DNA of 20,000 nucleotides from an uncultured virus (IMG/VR IMGVR_UViG_3300005201_000352) (IMGVR_UViG_3300005201_000352); one strand, 5' to 3'; numbered from the stretch's first letter, positions 1,042 through 19,590 are shown. Translations and numbers: made by a program. Notes: a model not told the origin generated them from the sequence alone.

Positions 1042-1446
1042 TTACCAAGCAACTCCGGGAGTGAAACCATTATCGGAATTGTGGTTGCTGTTTGAATTCC
1101 CATTTGAATTACCGCCATTGGAATTCCCGTTGCCTAAAAGCTGTACGCTGTTGGCGTTAATCACTACCTTTGACCTGTTCTGCCCGTCCTGTTGCCAGTG
1201 GTCTTGCCTTAATTCTCCGCTGATTGCCACCTGCTTGCCTTTTACAAGGTACTGGTGAAGAGTTTCAGCCTGTTTGCCGAACAGGGTAATGTCAAAAAAG
1301 TTTGCCACATCCTCCCACCCGTCGCCCTGTTTCTTTCGATAATTTACGGCTATTGAAAAATTGCTAACCGCAAATCCGCTTGACGTTGTTTTCAATTCAG
1401 CGTCTCTTGTCAATCTTCCTACCAAAACTACACAGTTGGTATCCAT
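1042..1446 (-). CDS. ssb: Single-stranded DNA-binding protein
   Basis: NCVVLVGRLTRDAELK...FSIAVN...LVKGKQVAISGELRQDHW OB-fold signature; Asn/Gly/Ser-rich tail. Confidence 0.95.
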   Translation of the reverse strand: MDTNCVVLVGRLTRDAELKTTSSGFAVSNFSIAVNYRKKQGDGWEDVANFFDITLFGKQAETLHQYLVKGKQVAISGELRQDHWQQDGQNRSKVVINANSVQLLGNGNSNGGNSNGNSNSNHNSDNGFTPGVAW

Positions 1447-2820: not shown

Positions 2821-3059
2821 TCTTCCCCCTCCGGCATTTCAAAGTATTCAAACGGCACATTGCAAAACATAAGCATTGCGTTGTTTTGGAAGTGAATGTA
2901 AAGCACGTTGTCAGTGCCGATTGTTATGTTTTCGATGATTGATGTAATAGCAAAGGTTTCTCTAACATAAGAAAAATCATCGCCGGTTTCAAATACCCTG
3001 CTTCCTTCAATCGGACAATAGACGATTGCGCTTTTTTTCTTTTTCATATTCTCCTCCAT
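2817..3059 (-). CDS. Hypothetical phage protein
   Basis: ORF coupled to the Gp157 stop (TAATG). Confidence 0.65.
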   Translation of the reverse strand: MEENMKKKKSAIVYCPIEGSRVFETGDDFSYVRETFAITSIIENITIGTDNVLYIHFQNNAMLMFCNVPFEYFEMPEGEE

Positions 3060-3694
3060 TACCTTATATAAAGAGCCTCTCCGCCTAAATACGTGACACC
3101 TGTTAATTCATGTTCGCCGTTTTGATCACGGTAGAACAGTTTCCCCTTAACAAGCTGATCTTCATCTGAGTTCTTTTCATACAGCCTGCCGTTTTCTATC
3201 GCTTCTTTTATTTTGGATTTATTTATATCTCTTGTGAGATATTCAACCGGAATATTGTCAGGATTGAAAAAGCCTTTTACTGTGTCTAAACTTTTCTGTG
3301 TTGCTTGCCAGTTTGCAGTGAACAGGTCAGTTTTTATTGTTTTCTTTCCTACTTTTTCCATGAGATAGGCAAGCAAGCCCTTAACTCTGTTCGCTTCGTT
3401 TTCCCTTGCCTTCGCTCTTTTTTGCAGCCTGTCCATTTCCGCTTTCATCGCGCTTTTTTCCGCTTCGGCGATCTCGGCTTGAAGTTTCAGGTTTTTGAAA
3501 ACCTTACAGATACCGTCCATTTTGTCTTTAATGTCATGACCAATCTTGTCGATCTGTTCAGATATAAAAGATTTTTCGTCTTCGGTTAATTCTCTGGTCT
3601 CGCCAGTGTCAGGATCGGTCAATTCGTTGATCAAGGACACCAGCGCGTCCCATTCGCCGCCTAACTGGTAGGCGGTCATTCGTTTTTCAGCCAT
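3059..3694 (-). CDS. Siphovirus Gp157 family (Gam-like coiled-coil) protein
   Basis: MTAYQL...IKDKMDGICKVFKNL...AMKAEMDRLQKRAKARENEANRVKGLLAYLME...IKTDLFT...INKSKIKEAI...EALYIR pattern; SD AAGGAGGT. Confidence 0.85.
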   Translation of the reverse strand: MAEKRMTAYQLGGEWDALVSLINELTDPDTGETRELTEDEKSFISEQIDKIGHDIKDKMDGICKVFKNLKLQAEIAEAEKSAMKAEMDRLQKRAKARENEANRVKGLLAYLMEKVGKKTIKTDLFTANWQATQKSLDTVKGFFNPDNIPVEYLTRDINKSKIKEAIENGRLYEKNSDEDQLVKGKLFYRDQNGEHELTGVTYLGGEALYIR

Positions 3695-4726: not shown

Positions 4727-5467
4727 TTATACTGTGGCGAACCTCGCCATTGCGTTTTGCATAATACAGTGAGCTTCAAACATTCCGCGCACCTTAAAAC
4801 CTGCCGGTATAAATCCGCTTCTTGCCATAAGATCACTCAGCCTGTTCAATCTTTCTTCATGCTCTAATTCTTTTGTCAGCTTTTTGTTCTCCTCGACCAG
4901 TGGATAGAGGATATTTACCTCAGCCATTATCTTCCGCTCTTCCGCTGTTATCGGTCTCGCTACATAGACTTCTTTCATCGGCTTGGTCTTGTTAAGCCAT
5001 TTCTGGTCAAAGATTTTCTCAAGCGGAACGAGATCAAACTTTTTGGTTGCAAAAAAGTCTTCGATTTCAATTTGTTTGTGTTTTTGCTGTTTCTCCACAT
5101 AAACCTTAACTGCGTTGTCAACAATTCCAGATGCTTCTTTGATTACCTTGCGAATCTGTTTGATGTTCTCGTCAATGTTTTGCAGGGGTTTCTCATAAGC
5201 TTTTTTCAATATCGCGTACTGGTCTGCGATATTCTTTTCTGCCTTGTTTAATTCTGCCCTGTCTTTTTTTGCGACATCCTCAAGCGGGACATAATTCGGC
5301 TCAAGGTATTTGCGGTACGCATCATCTGCGTCTTGCATACTTGCCTGAATAGACCTTACAGCGTCCTTATGTGCAACCACTACACGCTGAAAGGTATTCT
5401 CCAAGTCCTTCTCGCTGATTTCGCTGATTTCTAGATCGGCGATAACCATTGGTACTGCTTCATTCAT
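4727..5467 (-). CDS. DUF1351 family phage protein
   Basis: AKKDRAELNK...LKKAYEKP...IKEASGIVD..VK...LEKIFDQKWLNKT matches the DUF1351 pattern. Confidence 0.75.
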   Translation of the reverse strand: MNEAVPMVIADLEISEISEKDLENTFQRVVVAHKDAVRSIQASMQDADDAYRKYLEPNYVPLEDVAKKDRAELNKAEKNIADQYAILKKAYEKPLQNIDENIKQIRKVIKEASGIVDNAVKVYVEKQQKHKQIEIEDFFATKKFDLVPLEKIFDQKWLNKTKPMKEVYVARPITAEERKIMAEVNILYPLVEENKKLTKELEHEERLNRLSDLMARSGFIPAGFKVRGMFEAHCIMQNAMARFATV

Positions 5468-10581: not shown

Positions 10582-11304
10582 ATGCTCTATAGGGTTATTA
10601 CGTGGAACATGGACTGGTGGAAAAGAACTGATGACCAGCGCAAGGCAGGGTGGGAATACCTTCAAAAACAAGATTGCGACTTCGCGCTCTTGCAGGAAGT
10701 TAAACCTGATTTGACTTCAATGCCGGGATACAATATCAGCTTTCATAGGTTCATTGTAAAACAAGAATGGGGATCGGCAATTATCTCAAAGGGGTATAAT
10801 TTCATTCACCACTCCTTCCCCAGTTCTTATGATGGTTCGCCTGGGTTATTGTGTTATGAATTCCTATTGCCATGTGGCGAGCCTATAATCATTATCAACT
10901 TATACGGAAAAATTGATACCTCAAAGTTTGCCAGTACAACAATTCACCACATGATTTCAGATATTACCTCATTAGTTTATTACAATAAACGTAAATATAT
11001 CCTGCTTGCTGGTGACTTCAATCTTTCTGAGCAATGGGACGAAAAATATAAAGAGCGCTGGCCGCTTCACAAACAGTGCTTTGACCGGCTTGATGACCTT
11101 GGCTTTGTCAATATCACAAAGTTAAAATTCGGCGGTCATTTCCAAACCCATGTTCATAGTAGAAGCGATTTCCAGTGGCAGATAGATTATTTTTTCTTGA
11201 ACAAAAAATTATATGCAAAAATAGGCGACTGCAAAGTCAATAATCAAGAAGGTATGTTGGAATTAAGCGACCATTTCCCTATTGAATTGACTTTGGATTT
11301 GTAA
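10582..11304 (+). CDS. Endonuclease/exonuclease/phosphatase (EEP) family protein
   Basis: Motifs ITWN, LQEV, INLY, AGDFN, IDYFF, LSDHFP. Confidence 0.9.
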   Translation: MLYRVITWNMDWWKRTDDQRKAGWEYLQKQDCDFALLQEVKPDLTSMPGYNISFHRFIVKQEWGSAIISKGYNFIHHSFPSSYDGSPGLLCYEFLLPCGEPIIIINLYGKIDTSKFASTTIHHMISDITSLVYYNKRKYILLAGDFNLSEQWDEKYKERWPLHKQCFDRLDDLGFVNITKLKFGGHFQTHVHSRSDFQWQIDYFFLNKKLYAKIGDCKVNNQEGMLELSDHFPIELTLDL

Positions 11305-11491
11305 CCGATTTTATTTTAAATCTAGGCAATATAAACGCAACCTATACAACTCAGGCAAACACCCCGAATTTCGCGCAAGGAAGCCTCTTGGTGCGGTTTT
11401 ATGGGTAAATAAATAAAAGGTTACAGAATATAAACACGATAGAACGACGTTATTGAGCAAATAAAGGCATTTTGAAACTAATTACAGACTG

Positions 11492-11728: not shown

Positions 11729-12151
11729 CTATTTTTTACGACCACGTTTCGGAACAATGTCCGTTGCATCTTTGCGCGGTCGCCCTACGGGTTTTTTTGG
11801 AGTGGTGTCTACCGGCTTCTCTTTACGCGGTCTTCCTGGTTTACCGGGGATTTTGGGAGGCTTGGGCTTCGCTCGTTTACCGGGCTTTGGTCTGTTTGCA
11901 AATGCAGTTTCGGCTTCTTTATCGAAAAGATAAAATTCAACTGTTTTCCCGCCATCAAAGCTGACATATGGAAGATCGTTTTCAAGAGCATATTGCCGAA
12001 CACGAACTTGAGTAACTCCGTATTCTTCGGCAATCTGTTTTGTTGGCTTACCATTTAGCTGTATCATTCCCATGTCTAAAAGATTAGCGGATACGTTGGC
12101 CTTTTTCAAGGGCTTTTTACTACGAAATAAGACCGGTTTCTTGGAATCCAT
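11729..12151 (-). CDS. HTH plus multiple AT-hook DNA-binding protein (alternative start 12073)
   Basis: TKQIAEEYGVTQVRVRQYA HTH; PGRPRK, VGRPRK, KRGRKK AT-hook-like motifs. Confidence 0.75.
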   Translation of the reverse strand: MDSKKPVLFRSKKPLKKANVSANLLDMGMIQLNGKPTKQIAEEYGVTQVRVRQYALENDLPYVSFDGGKTVEFYLFDKEAETAFANRPKPGKRAKPKPPKIPGKPGRPRKEKPVDTTPKKPVGRPRKDATDIVPKRGRKK

Positions 12152-12573
12152 TACGCCACCTTCTCCTTAATCCAGTTCAAAATTGCCTCTTTGAATATGA
12201 TTCCGCCTTCCTTCGGAAGCATTACAACAAATTCTTTCTTGAAATCTTGATGATACCTCTCGGCTACTTCCTGTCCGACAAAGATTGAAAGAATATTCAG
12301 AGCAAAGTCAGCCGGTCCCGAACCGCCGTAACCCCACTCAAACCCAGTTGGGCTATGGTACGTAATACGGCATGGTACGTTTGTATGTATTCCATTTTCA
12401 TCACGCGAACAAACAATATCCTCTCGCCAGTTTTCGATTTTTCCTACTTTTTTCATAAAACCAAACTCCATTTGCTTTTCATCTTTTCCCCTGCATACTG
12501 GACCAATACCCAATTTTACCGACAGCGGGTTTTTAAGAAGCCGTCTGCAGATACGACAGTGCGAACTCGGCAT
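12151..12573 (-). CDS. DUF6011-like Zn finger fused to DUF6166-like domain
   Basis: CRICRRLLKNPLSVKLGIGPVC and HSPTGFEWGYGGSGPADFALNIL. Confidence 0.75.
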   Translation of the reverse strand: MPSSHCRICRRLLKNPLSVKLGIGPVCRGKDEKQMEFGFMKKVGKIENWREDIVCSRDENGIHTNVPCRITYHSPTGFEWGYGGSGPADFALNILSIFVGQEVAERYHQDFKKEFVVMLPKEGGIIFKEAILNWIKEKVA

Positions 12574-12582
12574 AACGACCTC

Positions 12583-13017
12583 TTAGGCAACCTCAACAAG
12601 TTCCTCAACATGCTCTTCTATTCCATCGTCCAAGGGCGGGACTTCGGTCTCGAAGTCCATTGAAGGTATCTCTTCCTGTTTTTCCTTTTTGAACTCGGGA
12701 CGGAACTCAACATGCTCGGAAGCGATAACAATCCGGGCGTGAGTTTTACCATCTTCGCCTGCCCAGCGATCCTGTCTGAGCCGGCCAACCACTCTGACGC
12801 CGCGTCCTTTCTTCCCTATCCCGTAACAGCTCTCAGCGAGTTTCCCCCACGCTTCGATGTCGAAAAAACTGACTTCTTTCTCGATCCCATTCTCTGCTCT
12901 GTAATATCTGTTTGAGGCAAGGGTAAAATTACAGACCGCTGTTCCTTTCTTGGTGTGCCTTACCTGCGGATCTCTGACAAGGTTTCCTTCGATCAAGATT
13001 GAATTTAGATTATTCAT
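12583..13017 (-). CDS. ssb: Single-stranded DNA-binding protein (second, spirochete-type)
   Basis: LNSILIEGNLVRDP...FTLASNRYY...EVSFFDIEAWGKLAE...KKGRGVRVVGRLRQDRW...EHVEFRP. Confidence 0.93.
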   Translation of the reverse strand: MNNLNSILIEGNLVRDPQVRHTKKGTAVCNFTLASNRYYRAENGIEKEVSFFDIEAWGKLAESCYGIGKKGRGVRVVGRLRQDRWAGEDGKTHARIVIASEHVEFRPEFKKEKQEEIPSMDFETEVPPLDDGIEEHVEELVEVA

Positions 13018-13027
13018 ATACTCTCCT

Positions 13028-13087
13028 TGGCTTTCGCCGACCCCTTTCGGGGTTTCGACTGGTTGCCATCCAGTCTCATCAGGGCGA
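13028..13087 (-). ncRNA. Type I hammerhead ribozyme
   Basis: UCGCC-CUGAUGA-GACUGG(AUGGCAA)CCAGUC-GAAA-CCCC(GAAA)GGGG-UC^-GGCGA; complete core, three perfect stems; loop II UGGC can pair with downstream GCCA. Confidence 0.93.
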
Positions 13088-13088
13088 T

Positions 13089-13406
13089 TTAATTTGAGAT
13101 GATTTTATTTATCATCACTTTTAATTCTTGCGCATCCTTATCGGATAACGAACCGAAGTCAGTTCCCTTATCAGCACATATAAAAAAATCACCAACTATC
13201 GGGCGACGATAAAGACGACACCCGACTTTATTTAACGGGCTTCCGTTCAATAAACCTTCTTCGTCGACAACCATTATGTATCTGAGATCAAGTCCCATTG
13301 GTCTTACAATTTCAGCAAAGCCACTCTTAAATTGTTTCTGCATTTGCTCAAAAGTGAAATTGCCAATTACTACGTCATTGTTTGCTTTGACTAAAATTGC
13401 TTTCAT
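13089..13406 (-). CDS. DUF3846-like protein
   Basis: MVVDEEGLLNGSPLN...PIVGDFFIC...DFGSLSD. Confidence 0.75.
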   Translation of the reverse strand: MKAILVKANNDVVIGNFTFEQMQKQFKSGFAEIVRPMGLDLRYIMVVDEEGLLNGSPLNKVGCRLYRRPIVGDFFICADKGTDFGSLSDKDAQELKVMINKIISN

Positions 13407-13864
13407 ATATTTTTTCTCCTCGTTTTATTCTCCTCATATATTTCAACTTGCTTTTTCTTGGCAAGTTTCAAGCCGTGCTGTAGCCTTTCGTCTTTTTCAA
13501 TATCCTCTGGCTCTAATCCAAGAGCGTCCAGTGTAGAAGAAATATCCCAAGAAACTATAAACTCGTGATCTGAAAGTTCATGGTTGAACATCTCAAAGAT
13601 AAAACCTTCACCTGTAGGATCGGCGGCTATTGCATCGTCCATTTCCTTAGAATGCCGATCCAACATTTTATGGAGACGCATTGCATCGGTGCGGAGATAA
13701 AACCCGCCTGTATTGCCGAACTTGTAAATCTTATCCGTATCGTTCGGTGATAATCCGAACTTCGCCATACCTTCTTCAAATTGTTTGTCACTGAAAGCAA
13801 AGAAAAACGGGAAGTCGTTTACTTCTGACTGGTGTCTGTTTTTCATCTCAACATAAGCGTTCAT
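13403..13864 (-). CDS. Conserved phage/MGE hypothetical protein (FFAFSxxQFEEG...GGF...FIxEMFxxELxDHE family)
   Basis: Recognisable conserved motifs; SD AAGGAGGT. Confidence 0.8.
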   Translation of the reverse strand: MNAYVEMKNRHQSEVNDFPFFFAFSDKQFEEGMAKFGLSPNDTDKIYKFGNTGGFYLRTDAMRLHKMLDRHSKEMDDAIAADPTGEGFIFEMFNHELSDHEFIVSWDISSTLDALGLEPEDIEKDERLQHGLKLAKKKQVEIYEENKTRRKNI

Positions 13865-13875
13865 TTAATACCTCC

Positions 13876-14082
13876 TTATACGGTTTTAATTGCAAAGTAA
13901 TCCGCTTTTTTTCTGTCATACTTTACAATAACGCCATTTTGTTTTGCGATTTTTTTTGCTCTTGTAAATATGGTTTTATTGGTGATAAAAAAATGCTTTC
14001 CGTTTTCAGCGGCTTCGGTTATTCTGATCGCTATACTGCTAACGGCATAATGACCAAAATTAGGATTTATTCGCTTACTCAT
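13876..14082 (-). CDS. Basic hypothetical protein
   Basis: SD GGGAGGT; start abuts the upstream stop. Confidence 0.65.
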   Translation of the reverse strand: MSKRINPNFGHYAVSSIAIRITEAAENGKHFFITNKTIFTRAKKIAKQNGVIVKYDRKKADYFAIKTV

Positions 14083-15350: not shown

Positions 15351-15541
15351 CTTCAATCTCCTTCGGTTATCGTAATAACCAGATTTAATTTTTTATAAGA
15401 TTTATTTATCATCTTATATTTATATTATAGCGTATAAGTAAATATATATCAATAGTTTTTAGAAAATATTTTATCTTTTTTTGAAAATATTTTTTAGTTT
15501 TACTATACAAATGTTTATTTTTTGTTAATGGCGCGTAACGG
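15346..15541 (-). repeat. Promoter/leader/RBS cassette, copy 2 (direct repeat of 7355-7547)
   Basis: Direct sequence comparison; offset 7993 bp. Confidence 0.95.
15424..15452 (-). promoter_or_regulatory. Strong sigma70 promoter TTGATA-17-TATAAT
   Basis: -35 at 15447-15452, -10 at 15424-15429; identical to copy 1. Confidence 0.85.
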
Positions 15542-15557
15542 GTTGCGCGTAACATAA

Positions 15558-16829
15558 TCACACAACCTTGAACATTTTATTCTCAAGTGAAAGTTCAGGC
15601 TGTTGCGCTTTCTCACTCACCTTCTTGCTAATCTTATTCATCGTGTTAGCCGGTTCGTGCAGATACCCAAGCGTAGTTTCCATTCTGGAATGACCAAGCA
15701 TTTTTTGAATGTAACGTAACGGTACACCGTCATTTTCCAGTATTGACGCAAGGCTGTGTCTTGAGCTATGCGGAACAATATTGCGCCCTTCTGTATTAAT
15801 CCCTGCTTTCTTTAACCATCGCGGCACCCAATAAGGCAGATAACGCGGACCTGGTACGCTTCCGTCTTTTCTACAAAAAACAAACTCGTATTTACCGTAA
15901 GCCTCCCATAGTTCTTTTATAGCTTCCTGTAATTGCAATGGAAAAATAGTTTCTCTTGTCTTATGACATTTTGGATCACCCATTTCGCGGTTCTTTGAGG
16001 CAAAGCGTTTCCATGCGTGTAAAACTTTAATACGAGGAGTTTTCCAATCTAGGTCATCAGGCTGTAATGCGAATATCTCAGAGCGTCTTAATCCTGCATA
16101 GAACATCGCGGCGCAAACCGCTTTCTGCAAGGGATCGGTCAGTACATTGGGCTGGAACAGTGCGATTAGTTCGTCTTGAGTGAGAGCGTCTCTCTTTACT
16201 GCTTTTCTACCCTTCGGAGCTTTTATATTTCTGAACGGATTAAACCAGCCGTGATTAGCATCTTCATACATATTAAACGCCATGCGGAGAAATGAAAGCA
16301 AGGTTTCAAACGTTCTCGTTCCGACAATTACTTTAGTTCCTTTGTGATTCTTTTTGAGCCCAAGCCGTCCGATAAATGCTAGTAAATCAGTCTCAACAAC
16401 AGAAGCCATGCTAAACTTCATAAATGGATCTTCTTTCAGATATAAATCGAACTTTATCCTGTACCCTTCTATTGTGTCCGGCGAATAAGGCAATCCTTCT
16501 GAAATAAGCACTGCGCTACGAGGGTTATCATCAAGAGAAATGAATTTATTAAGCCAGTCGCCAACGGTTATATCTTTCGGAGCAACTCTCTGACCGCTAG
16601 AGATCTGTTTTTTAAGAAACTCGATAAGCACATCTGCTGCATTATCAGCGGCAGACTTTGATTTCGGTTCTCTGAGATGAGCAAGCTCGATAGGAAAGCG
16701 CGAAAAACTTACCCTTGTCCATTCTTTGCAGATATTCAATGGCAGTCCTGAGACTGGAGTAATAGTGATCATAAACTTTTTGGTATCTTTGCGGCGATAT
16801 GTTTTAAATCTTGACATAGCTCTCGGCAT
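15558..16829 (-). CDS. int: Phage tyrosine recombinase/integrase (423 aa)
   Basis: GLRRSEI, HSSRHS, LGHS and TLGY catalytic motifs; start MPRAMS at 16829 after SD AGGAG. Confidence 0.95.
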   Translation of the reverse strand: MPRAMSRFKTYRRKDTKKFMITITPVSGLPLNICKEWTRVSFSRFPIELAHLREPKSKSAADNAADVLIEFLKKQISSGQRVAPKDITVGDWLNKFISLDDNPRSAVLISEGLPYSPDTIEGYRIKFDLYLKEDPFMKFSMASVVETDLLAFIGRLGLKKNHKGTKVIVGTRTFETLLSFLRMAFNMYEDANHGWFNPFRNIKAPKGRKAVKRDALTQDELIALFQPNVLTDPLQKAVCAAMFYAGLRRSEIFALQPDDLDWKTPRIKVLHAWKRFASKNREMGDPKCHKTRETIFPLQLQEAIKELWEAYGKYEFVFCRKDGSVPGPRYLPYWVPRWLKKAGINTEGRNIVPHSSRHSLASILENDGVPLRYIQKMLGHSRMETTLGYLHEPANTMNKISKKVSEKAQQPELSLENKMFKVV

Positions 16830-16851
16830 AAGGTTTTCTCCTGAGAAAAAA

Positions 16852-16895
16852 TAACGTGTTAACGTGTAAAATAAAATACACGAATCGTACACGTT
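16852..16895. promoter_or_regulatory. Putative integrase arm-type binding sites
   Basis: TAACGTGT x2 in tandem (16852-16867) and inverted TACACG / TACACGTT (16877-16882, 16888-16895) between int and the tRNA. Confidence 0.5.
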
Positions 16896-17300: not shown

Positions 17301-17411
17301 AACCGCGGATTACACGGATTTAAGAGGATAACACGGATAATTCTTATAGGGATTCCCTATTAATTCATTCTTATCCGTGTTTATCTGTGTTCATCCGCGC
17401 TATCCGTGGTT
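17301..17411. repeat. MITE/REP-like palindromic element built of ~9-nt ACACGGAT units
   Basis: Terminal inverted repeats AACCGCGGAT / ATCCGTGGTT with internal CACGGAT and ATCCGTG units; intergenic, just downstream of cadA. Confidence 0.65.
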
Positions 17412-17425
17412 CAAAAAAATAAATT

Positions 17426-19427
17426 TTACTTCCGTAAAATGCGCATGGCGTTTAAAACGGCGATTAGCGAGACGCCGACGTCGGCGAATACGGCTTCCCA
17501 CATGCCGGCGACGCCGAATGCGCCGAGTACCAGAAAGGCGGTTTTTACGCCAAGCGCAAAAATAATGTTTTGACTGACAATGCGCTTTGTATAGCGGGCA
17601 ATGTCTACAGCTTGCGCAAGTTTTGAGGGCTCGTCCGTCATCNNNNNNNNNNNNNNNNNNNNNNNNNNNNNNNNNNNNNNNNNNNNNNNNNNNNNNNNNN
17701 NNNNNNNNNNNNNNNNNNNNNNNNNNNNNNNNNNNNNNNNNNNNNNNNNNNNNNNNNNNNNNNNNNNNNNNNNNNNNNNNNNNNNNNNNNNNNNNNNNNN
17801 NNTCGGCGGCTTCGATAGCGGCGTCGGAGCCGAGGCCGCCCATGGCGACACCTATGTCCGCAATCGCGAGAACGGGAGCGTCGTTTATGCCGTCGCCGAT
17901 AAAGGCCAGTTTGCAGTTCTTCTCCTTTTTAGCGTTGAGTTTTTCCAGTATCTCAACTTTTTCCTGTGGAAGAAGGCCTGAGTATACTTCGTCAAGTCCC
18001 AATTCGCCGGCGATTGCCTCTGCAATTTGCGGACTGTCGCCTGTAAGCATAACGGTTTTTCTCACTCCCCTTGCCTTCAGCGACGACACAAGGCCGCGGC
18101 TGTCGGGTTTGATTTCATCAGATATGACAATACAGCCGGCAAAAATATTATCAAAGGCCACATAGACTTTTGTTCCGTTGTTACTCGAAACTTGATAATT
18201 AATTTTTTTGTCGGCCATTAGTTTTTCGTTTCCGGCAAGGATCAATTTTCCGTTTTGTTTAACGCTTACTCCGTATCCTGCAAGTTCGGTATATTCGCTA
18301 AGGCCGCTCCTGTTCACTTCCCCGCCAAACTCCTGCATGACAGATAACGCGATGGGATGATTCGAAAAAGCTTCGGCATTTGCAGCTAACTCAAGCAGGC
18401 TGTTTTTATCAAAACCGTTTGCCGGCTGGACAGAAGTTACTTTGAACACTCCCTTTGTCAGTGTTCCCGTTTTATCAAAGACGGCGATATCGAGATGATT
18501 GAAAGCTTCAAGATAATTGCCGCCTTTTACAAGTATGCCGCTTTTTGCCGCCCTGCCGATGCCGCCAAAAAAACTCATCGGAATTGACAGCACGAGTGCG
18601 CACGGACATGAAATGACAAGGAAGACAAGCGCGCGGTGTATCCATTGTGGCCACCCGCCAAGAAAGAGAGGCGGCAGTGTTGCAAGAAGGAGCGCAAGGA
18701 AAATAACTACAGGCGTGTAGTAGCGCGCGAAGGTCGTGATAAAATTTTCAGTTTTCGCTTTTTTACCCGCGGCATTTTCAACAAGATCGATAATTTTTGA
18801 AACAGTCGACTCGCCGAAAGTCTTTGTAACTTCTACCGTTAACAAGCCGCTTATGTTGACACAGCCCGATAAAACGTTATCTGAAACTCCCGTCTTTCTG
18901 GGAACGGACTCTCCTGTAAGAGCCGATGTGTCGAGCATGGATTGGCCTTCGATGACAATTCCGTCGAGGGGGATTTTTTCTCCGGGTTTTACAATTATTG
19001 TATCGCCGACACATATGGTATCAGGAGACGTTTTGATTATTTCACCGTCTCTTTTCAGATTGGCGTAATCGGGCCTTATGTCCATCAGGTTTGTGATGGA
19101 CTTTTTTGAGTTCGCTACTGCCATTTCCATCAGGAACTCGCCTGTCTGATAAAAGAGCATGACGCCTACAGCTTCGGCGGACTCTCCGATAGCGAAGGCC
19201 CCGATAGTGGCGAGGCTCATCAAAAAGTTTTCGTCAAAAAACTGCCCCCGCAAAATGTTTTTAAGCGCGCGTAAAATTACATCGCTTCCCAAGAGGAGGT
19301 ATCCTGTTATAAAAATGACAAGCGGAATATAGCCGCTCATAATTTCTGTTTTTTCGATAATCATTCCGGCGGCCAAAACAAGCGCGCCAAAAATCAGTCT
19401 GGTTATCATCATACTTTCTTTTTTCAT
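17426..19427 (-). CDS. cadA: Heavy-metal (Cd/Zn/Pb) translocating P1B-type ATPase, spanning an N gap
   Basis: DENFLM, LTGES, ISCPCAL, DKTGTLT, NHPIA, GDGINDAP; C-terminus MTDEP...AVFADVGV...LNAMR in another frame after the gap; no N-terminal HMA domain seen. Confidence 0.92.
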
Positions 19428-19590
19428 AAACCCTCTGTTACGTCGCGTGAGCGACGATGTAAATCGAAGTTTCCGCAATGCGGAAACAAAACCCCTTCCA
19501 ATTAATTCTATAATTGCTCAATCATTCAACTATCATACAAAAAAAACAACTCATCAATATAAATCCGGATCAGAAATTAATTTCGATCCT

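Follow-up and report, generated by a model that had tools for sequence, protein, structure and literature searches.

The 20,000-nt window analysed here, the whole stretch of DNA from an uncultured virus (IMG/VR IMGVR_UViG_3300005201_000352), raises the question of whether the sequence between a DUF3846 gene and ssb is a working ribozyme and, if so, what its cleavage would mean for the ssb message. The DUF3846 stop codon (13091-13089) and the ssb ATG (13017-13015) enclose a 71-nt gap, as ORF calls confirm, and the gap is filled by a hammerhead, as the first-pass annotation had described it. The elements in and around the gap, read from the sequence, are as follows.

13087-13083, minus strand: 5' strand of stem I (UCGCC), which pairs with 13034-13038 and starts 1 nt after the DUF3846 stop codon
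13082-13076, minus strand: catalytic core C3-A9 (CUGAUGA), which aligns to the core of the covariance model R1 described below
13075-13070 with 13062-13057, minus strand: stem II (GACUGG/CCAGUC), 6 bp, with G10.1-C11.1 as closing pair
13069-13063, minus strand: loop II (AUGGCAA), 7 nt
13068-13065, minus strand: 5' strand of the pseudoknot (UGGC) in loop II, complementary to GCCA
13056-13054, minus strand: core G12 A13 A14 (GAA)
13053-13049 with 13044-13040, minus strand: stem III (ACCCC/GGGGU), 5 bp, made of A15.1-U16.1 and four C-G pairs
13048-13045, minus strand: GAAA tetraloop of stem III
13039, minus strand: C17, with G1.1 at 13038
13038-13034, minus strand: 3' strand of stem I (GGCGA), with which the ssb message would begin once the RNA is cut
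13033-13015, minus strand: tail, Shine-Dalgarno and start codon (AAGCCAAGGAGAGUAUAUG)
13031-13028, minus strand: 3' strand of the pseudoknot (GCCA), abutting AGGAGAG
13027-13021, minus strand: ssb Shine-Dalgarno (AGGAGAG), directly adjoining the 3' strand of the pseudoknot

Judged by its sequence, the minus strand from 13087 to 13034 is confirmed as a canonical type I hammerhead ribozyme. All positions of the hammerhead consensus used in PMC3088659 are present (C3 U4 G5 A6 N7 G8 A9, G12 A13 A14 and an H17 other than G), the core-adjacent pairs G13075-C13057 (10.1-11.1), G13038-C13083 (1.1-2.1) and A13053-U13040 (15.1-16.1) contain no mispair, and the stems of 5, 6 and 5 bp are Watson-Crick throughout, giving three helices without multiple mispairs or bulges. 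The topology is that of type I, with stem I open and loops closing stems II and III. Sequence and comparative data confirm the intact type I hammerhead with full core and three perfect stems that the first-pass annotation had placed at 13028-13087, and its extent and every coordinate are correct on the minus-strand sequence. The predicted scissile bond, placed by the hammerhead consensus, is C13039|G13038, and a cut there would leave a 21-nt leader before ssb; both positions, which had been proposed earlier, are supported by the sequence and by comparison with homologues. The ribozyme is almost certainly able to cleave itself.

Folding calculations recovered the same architecture. The unconstrained minimum-energy fold of 13088-12980 (RNAfold) was the hammerhead three-way junction, at -28.7 kcal/mol, with the hammerhead helices by themselves contributing -23.9 kcal/mol, and the minimum-energy fold of 13120-12980 was the hammerhead junction as well. 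A fold computed in shorter context was an alternative in which stem I was replaced and part of the core paired to the Shine-Dalgarno, indicating that stem I is the weakest helix.

Two kinds of search were used to gauge how specific this match is. A strict descriptor, requiring the core, A15.1-U16.1, H17 and three stems of at least 3 bp each, gave 39 strand-sequence matches in 3000 Markov-simulated 20-kb sequences, and just two of the 39 had at least 16 stem pairs, as the real copy does. Loose patterns were uninformative, because a loose gapped pattern gave 10 matches in the window where 2.3 were expected. For a homology-based score, a pattern that fixed the core, a GGC-containing loop tetramer, the tail and the length of stem II was matched by 13 viral and 4 bacterial-genome loci, in which the stems vary freely. 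Eight non-redundant hammerheads from these were aligned (alignment A2), L212 and L221 being left out for their register and L214 for its 2-bp stem III, and the covariance model R1 was built on these eight independent phage or bacterial hammerheads with the window copy excluded. With filters off, R1 gave the window copy 74.8 bits (E 2e-16), a score in which the loop, tail and core letters agree partly by construction of the pattern whereas the stems do not. Every other match to R1 in the window scored at most 9.5 bits, leaving a single hammerhead copy. Identical copies of a hammerhead-like sequence, in which the core, stems I and II and the pseudoknot are all intact but stem III has 2 bp only, occur on five contigs (L214, L218, L219, L223 and L224); this sequence is possibly a minimal or defective variant.

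A generic hammerhead pattern found at least 124 loci in viral contigs, and among these at least 124 listed loci a descriptor recognised 70 unique type I hammerheads with open stems I of 4-6 bp. A narrower pattern, in which the stem I and tail of the window copy were fixed and stems II and III left free, matched 56 metagenome, 10 viral and 4 genome loci, the last comprising three Treponema MAGs and one Dehalococcoidia MAG. The metagenome and viral loci yielded 49 other unique hammerheads. These matches place the window copy in a widespread prophage and phage lineage, UCGCC...GGCGA-AAGCC, which occurs often in prophages of Treponema and in related contigs from metagenomes. R1 found 65 hammerheads in 50 sources of this lineage, including arrays of five copies in 2.7 kb (L272), four copies (L237) and three copies (L271), and pairs of copies in L247, L268, L274, L284 and L291. 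The arrays punctuate short genes, which agrees with the clustered arrangement described in the available text of PMC3088659.

The stems covaried strongly across the 65 hammerheads (alignment A3): 98.1% of 1079 cells paired, compared with 74.5% in shuffles and 34-49% in slid controls, and 14 of 17 pairs had changed on both sides (215 cells), which none of 500 shuffles reached, with the caveat that A3 was fitted to the model structure and its pair counts are inflated by this. Two-sided changes affected five of the six pairs of stem II across the 65 homologues. Stem I (helix 1 of A3) was paired in 99.1% of cells, and its conservation and that of the tail arise partly by construction, since the selecting pattern fixed both in most lineage members. 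The catalytic nucleotides were invariant across the 65 homologues, which precede unrelated genes. In about half of the lineage one more unpaired U (at times A, AU or UG instead) separates A9 from stem II (A3 columns 16-17), and the window copy has no extra nucleotide at this point.

A second structural element, the pairing of loop II with the tail, had been proposed in the first-pass annotation as a UGGC/GCCA pseudoknot beside the Shine-Dalgarno, and the sequence and the homologues support it. The duplex of 13068-13065 with 13031-13028 has a computed energy of -6.5 kcal/mol, and its three core pairs were paired in all 61 scorable homologue cells, with one or other flanking pair forming in about half of the sequences. 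Over the five proposed pairs, two-sided changes were seen in four cells (three pairs), among them UAGC/GCUA (L268) and UGGU/ACCA (L272), and none of 500 shuffles matched this, whereas 12 of 500 reached the observed percentage paired. As most rows had their tail fixed by the selecting pattern, covariation support for the pseudoknot is real but thin. In the wider class, an unselected sample of 70 viral type I hammerheads (among the matches listed), 25 could form an unbroken run of at least four Watson-Crick pairs joining loop II to the 14 nt past stem I. When the tails were permuted 1000 times, the mean number was 8.5 and the highest 17, and when the upstream 14 nt were used instead of the tail, 15 of the 70 could form such a run. 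The 4-bp loop II-tail pseudoknot is predicted to brace the active fold.

The genes around the ribozyme, with which its possible function must be considered, and the other features of the locus are these.

13089-13406, minus strand: DUF3846 gene (Pfam DUF3846 1.6e-12), upstream of the ribozyme
12583-13017, minus strand: ssb, 144 aa (Pfam SSB 4.1e-26; PHROG 44), downstream of the ribozyme
13403-13864: DUF7659 gene, from the ORF call with Pfam and PHROG scans
13876-14082: 68-aa ORF, with a tblastx match in the related locus L230
12151-12573: gene with DUF6011 and DUF6166 (Pfam)
11729-12151, minus strand: basic protein of 140 aa carrying two GRPRK motifs; its Sigma70_r4 match (E 0.004) is weak and falls below the cut-off
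1042-1446, minus strand: second SSB gene, its product 37% identical to the ribozyme-linked SSB
3059-3694: Gp157 gene, in a recombination-type block with the second SSB gene
4727-5467: DUF1351 gene, in the same recombination-type block
15558-16892: tyrosine integrase gene, adjoining tRNA-Val and tRNA-Gly
17400-19478: P-type ATPase gene, marking the host flank
15452-15424, minus strand: best promoter-like site (TTGATA-17-TATAAT, 11/12), a consensus match only, between the integrase and the early genes

Pfam bore out the labels ssb, DUF3846 and DUF6011/6166 given in the first-pass annotation. The GRPRK motifs of the 11729-12151 protein we take to be AT-hook-like. Further down lie the phage genes Gp157, DUF1351, NinG and the second SSB, and the integrase beside the tRNAs together with these phage genes indicates that the element is a prophage integrated beside tRNA genes; the second ssb suggests either one prophage with two ssb genes or two elements in tandem. 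A single gene on the plus strand (10582-11304; Pfam 5.8e-07), belonging to the endonuclease/exonuclease/phosphatase family and flanked by gaps (about 11305-11491), breaks the long run of minus-strand phage genes. No exact 31-nt match was found in viral contigs, and the phage collection gave none to 12000-14000 by blastn.

The promoter-like site near 15430 is a candidate start of the ribozyme-bearing transcript. No promoter-like site was found in a scan of the minus strand from 14361 to the ssb start at 13017, the sole terminator-like site on the minus strand of the scanned stretch lies inside the DUF3846 gene (13207-13188), and the scan found none in the ribozyme gap. Because that stretch has no promoter-like site and the gap no terminator-like one, ssb is likely to be co-transcribed with the upstream genes.

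Comparison with a related locus, L230, revealed that the junction between hammerhead and ssb is conserved. L230 and the window share 71% identity over 471 nt covering the hammerhead and ssb (blastn) and 73% over the promoter region, their SSB proteins are 70% identical, and tblastx matched the 68-aa ORF and the GRPRK protein, which is conserved in L230. The DUF7659 and DUF3846 genes are absent from L230, where, in their place, an ORF of 55 aa runs right up to stem I. The L230 hammerhead lies directly before ssb, with stem I, tail and Shine-Dalgarno the same as in the window, and differs by two pairs changed on both sides in stem II (A-U to G-C and U-A to G-C), two in stem III (C-G to G-C twice) and one U inserted after A9, with no pair broken. 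Since L230 keeps the junction despite a different upstream gene, the ribozyme travels here with the 5' side of ssb.

This link is local rather than general. We collected 87 loci, L003-L087 through relatives of the SSB (80 genome and 5 viral loci, mostly Treponema MAGs) and L001-L002 through relatives of the DUF3846 protein, for which genome contigs gave these two weak loci only. A regular-expression search found no hammerhead in the SSB- or DUF3846-seeded loci, and R1 found one in the 87 (L085), placed after the gene that follows ssb.

The sequence, its fold, its homology, the covariation and the conserved linkage to ssb together make it probable that this is a genuine type I hammerhead that cuts a polycistronic early RNA and separates the DUF3846 side from the ssb-DUF6011/6166 message, a reading in which cleavage in vivo, co-transcription and the effects on stability are what we infer. 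The ribozyme would form part of a polycistronic early transcript, which probably starts at the promoter-like site near 15430, and would cut itself between C13039 and G13038. The upstream message, whose last gene is DUF3846, would then carry a 2',3'-cyclic phosphate at its 3' end, preceded by the two stable hairpins of stems II and III. The ssb-DUF6011/6166 message would have a 5'-OH and a leader of constant length (21 nt), in which GGC and GCC, once released, may form a small 5' hairpin with a GAAA cap immediately ahead of the Shine-Dalgarno. The two halves of the RNA could then have separate stabilities and expression levels. 5'-OH ends, 5' hairpins and 3' hairpins protect bacterial mRNA from decay. 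The earlier suggestion that cleavage uncouples or stabilises the ssb message is plausible and fits the published record.

The first 10 nt of the leader (13038-13029) form the GGC-GAAA-GCC hairpin, with GGC at 13038-13036, at -5.1 kcal/mol. Refolding would favour release of the products, because this hairpin uses both segments that had held the 5' fragment, namely the 3' strands of stem I and of the pseudoknot. Such 5'-terminal hairpins were found in 29 of 66 3' products of the unselected viral sample (among the matches listed), a number that none of 300 shuffles of the tails reached (16.6 +/- 2.9), and in 39 of 79 compared with 21.9 when the pattern-selected loci were added.

An extension of this reading, which we regard as possible and hold tentatively, is that the conserved unit is a portable cassette of ribozyme and ribosome-binding site, acting as a natural insulator with a refolding hairpin and ribosome gating. 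The cassette would span the stop codon, UCGCC, the core and the cut site, up to GGCGAAAGCC and (A)AAGGAG. After the cut, a GNRA-capped 5' hairpin would promote product release and block religation, every downstream gene would receive the same protected 5'-OH leader, and the stop codon at stem I would let the terminating ribosome gate when the ribozyme folds. RiboJ-type synthetic insulators offer a functional analogy, without a claim of homology, in that a hammerhead just before the ribosome-binding site removes the variable upstream RNA, and what remains is a short, constant leader that bears a hairpin. RiboJ itself was engineered, its starting point being the hammerhead of a plant satellite RNA.

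Several regularities of the lineage are consistent with such a cassette. The identical leader precedes unrelated genes and the 5' hairpins are enriched, as described above, and the stop codon of the upstream gene is close to stem I: an upstream reading frame was present in 41 of 50 unique copies, the window included, and the gap from its stop codon to stem I was 0 nt in 23 of the 41 and at most 2 nt in 31. At junctions without a gap, a ribosome that terminates there would sit over stem I and the core, which suggests that upstream translation and ribozyme folding are coupled. The distance from cut to start, callable in 39 unique copies, was 13-26 nt in 16 of them, with a second cluster at 30-40 nt. 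It was mostly about 18-45 nt in the viral class sample (among the matches listed), so the 21 nt of the window are typical, and a ribozyme abutting the ribosome-binding site is a trait of the class and not a peculiarity of this locus.

A separate group within the lineage, with its start codon about 59 nt past the cut, has an extra hairpin. In this subgroup (L234, L235, which is the same as L085, L242, L252, L257-L259, L261, L276, L281, L292, L295, L296 and L298) the second hairpin comes right after the pseudoknot strand, within 60 nt after AAGCC, and its stem differs between copies yet stays paired. Most members continue with a near-constant AAACCAUGNAGAAGGAGAUU-like stretch and then the start codon, about 59 nt past the cut. 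The second hairpin and the near-constant stretch constitute an unnamed conserved module.

It is unlikely that the main role of the element is translational, with the folded hammerhead and pseudoknot hindering the 30S subunit until cleavage and release of the 5' fragment switch ssb on. The 3' strand of the pseudoknot (13031-13028) does touch the Shine-Dalgarno (13027-13021), the same direct abutment, with AGGAG, AAGGAG or AAAGGAG immediately after AAGCC, occurs in 14 other unique copies of the lineage (manual count), and in the short-context fold mentioned above the Shine-Dalgarno is base-paired to part of the core. However, the first-pass proposal that cleavage exposes the Shine-Dalgarno found no support in folding, as its mean unpaired probability was 0.33-0.48 before and 0.455 after cleavage, which is no clear gain (a calculation on secondary structure alone, not on tertiary sterics). 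The minimum-energy fold in longer context is the hammerhead with the Shine-Dalgarno outside it, and many members of the class lie 30-115 nt from the start codon, both of which argue against a translational switch.

Slight, too, is the probability that the ribozyme is active and essentially a selfish or neutral cassette, spreading among phage intergenic gaps without specific benefit to ssb. This reading would account for the variety of neighbours, since among 38 downstream genes of the lineage Pfam named one SSB, two AAA_24, one ParB-like protein and one GATase and left the rest unnamed, for L085, where the hammerhead follows a different gene, and for the array of five copies in one 2.7-kb locus. 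Almost all upstream genes lacked a Pfam name, and the inconstancy of the downstream genes agrees with a remark on flanked genes in the available text of PMC3088659. Against the selfish reading, the very regular placement after stop codons, the clustering of start codons 13-40 nt past the cut and the hammerhead-ssb junction, which a relative 71% identical has preserved through compensatory changes, argue for selection on function.

Another explanation is that the gap encodes a non-catalytic structured RNA that resembles a hammerhead, such as a terminator, an attenuator or an operator for SSB autoregulation. The ssb genes of some phages are autoregulated via leader structures, and the absence of an Rfam call at this locus could be counted in favour of this reading. 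The first-pass annotation had proposed a covariance scan with Rfam hammerhead models; at gathering score this reported the two tRNAs alone and no hammerhead family in the window, and the best hammerhead score was that of RF03152 (RAGATH-1), 24.3 bits against a cut-off of 56.3. Among the matches listed for 12950-13150 at E<=10, RF03152 was the sole hammerhead family and the rest were chance matches. The missing call is weak counter-evidence and reflects a gap in library coverage, because 20 loci with clear sibling phage hammerheads were equally missed, none reaching the gathering score, with two matches to RF03152 and one to RF02275 listed for these loci, all below threshold. A terminator was rejected, as neither hairpin is followed by a U-run and no terminator-like site from the scan falls within the gap. 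The presence of every invariant catalytic nucleotide, and their invariance in 65 homologues before unrelated genes, makes a non-catalytic RNA very improbable.

A chance match, to which the excess of loose-pattern matches might have pointed, is effectively refuted by the R1 score, the covariation in A3, the two comparable matches in 3000 simulated windows and the orthologous L230 copy with its compensatory changes.

The preferred reading, a genuine hammerhead that processes an early transcript, accords with known systems. The available text of PMC3088659 (Perreault et al. 2011) describes hundreds of bacterial hammerheads, many near integrases in prophages, with pseudoknots in all three types and in about 40% of representatives, and with clustered copies that flank genes. 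In a type II representative studied there, disruption of the pseudoknot sharply lowered cleavage and compensatory changes restored it, and three Agrobacterium copies cleaved in vivo in E. coli. The window copy resembles the prophage hammerheads described in that text in its canonical core, its short stems and a pseudoknot of at least 4 bp in place of loop-loop contacts, and in its intergenic position next to a gene, in a prophage and near an integrase. It differs from the type used in those pseudoknot assays in being type I, with loop II paired to the 3' tail, and its lineage, UCGCC...GGCGA-AAGCC, is not named in the part of PMC3088659 that is available.

A parallel in position is HHphage of the haloviruses HF1/HF2, which likewise lies in an early region, a few nucleotides ahead of where a replication gene starts; according to the available text of PMC3088659, it is 13 nt before the start of the helicase gene, and a transcript 5' end was mapped at most 3 nt from the cut. 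HHphage is a core-variant hammerhead of an archaeal virus and precedes a helicase gene, whereas the window copy precedes ssb. RAGATH-1, or 'PK hammerhead' (RF03152; crystal structure PDB 8YDC; PMC11300833), shares with the window copy the catalytic core and a pseudoknot as stabiliser. In the available description of RAGATH-1 (PMC11300833), a pseudoknot to which an extra stem-loop on helix I contributes takes the place of helix II. In contrast, the window copy has a normal 6-bp hairpin as stem II, to which the pseudoknot would be an additional tertiary brace, and it does not belong to RAGATH-1.

By 2011 the architecture, the association with prophages and integrases and the short distance to start codons had already been reported, as the available text of PMC3088659 makes clear, and the ribozyme is real but ordinary, in a typical place for a class that phages are already known to carry. 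Functions of these hammerheads are stated as unproven in that text, which proposes a role in the processing of long phage transcripts, and a search of the literature on phage hammerhead function for a later functional study found none. The additions made here are modest: a lineage with an invariant post-cleavage leader, the regularity with which a stop codon meets stem I, the enrichment of 5' hairpins and the gap in Rfam. Current Rfam hammerhead models miss the type I pseudoknot lineage, and genome annotation under-reports such ribozymes as a result. The value of the locus lies in its being a clean test case, with one ribozyme, a compact operon and a defined downstream ssb, together with a syntenic relative bearing compensatory changes and about 50 siblings with an identical post-cleavage leader. 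It opens to direct test the long-standing question of whether hammerheads in phages determine how stable neighbouring cistrons are, and how well translated, relative to each other.
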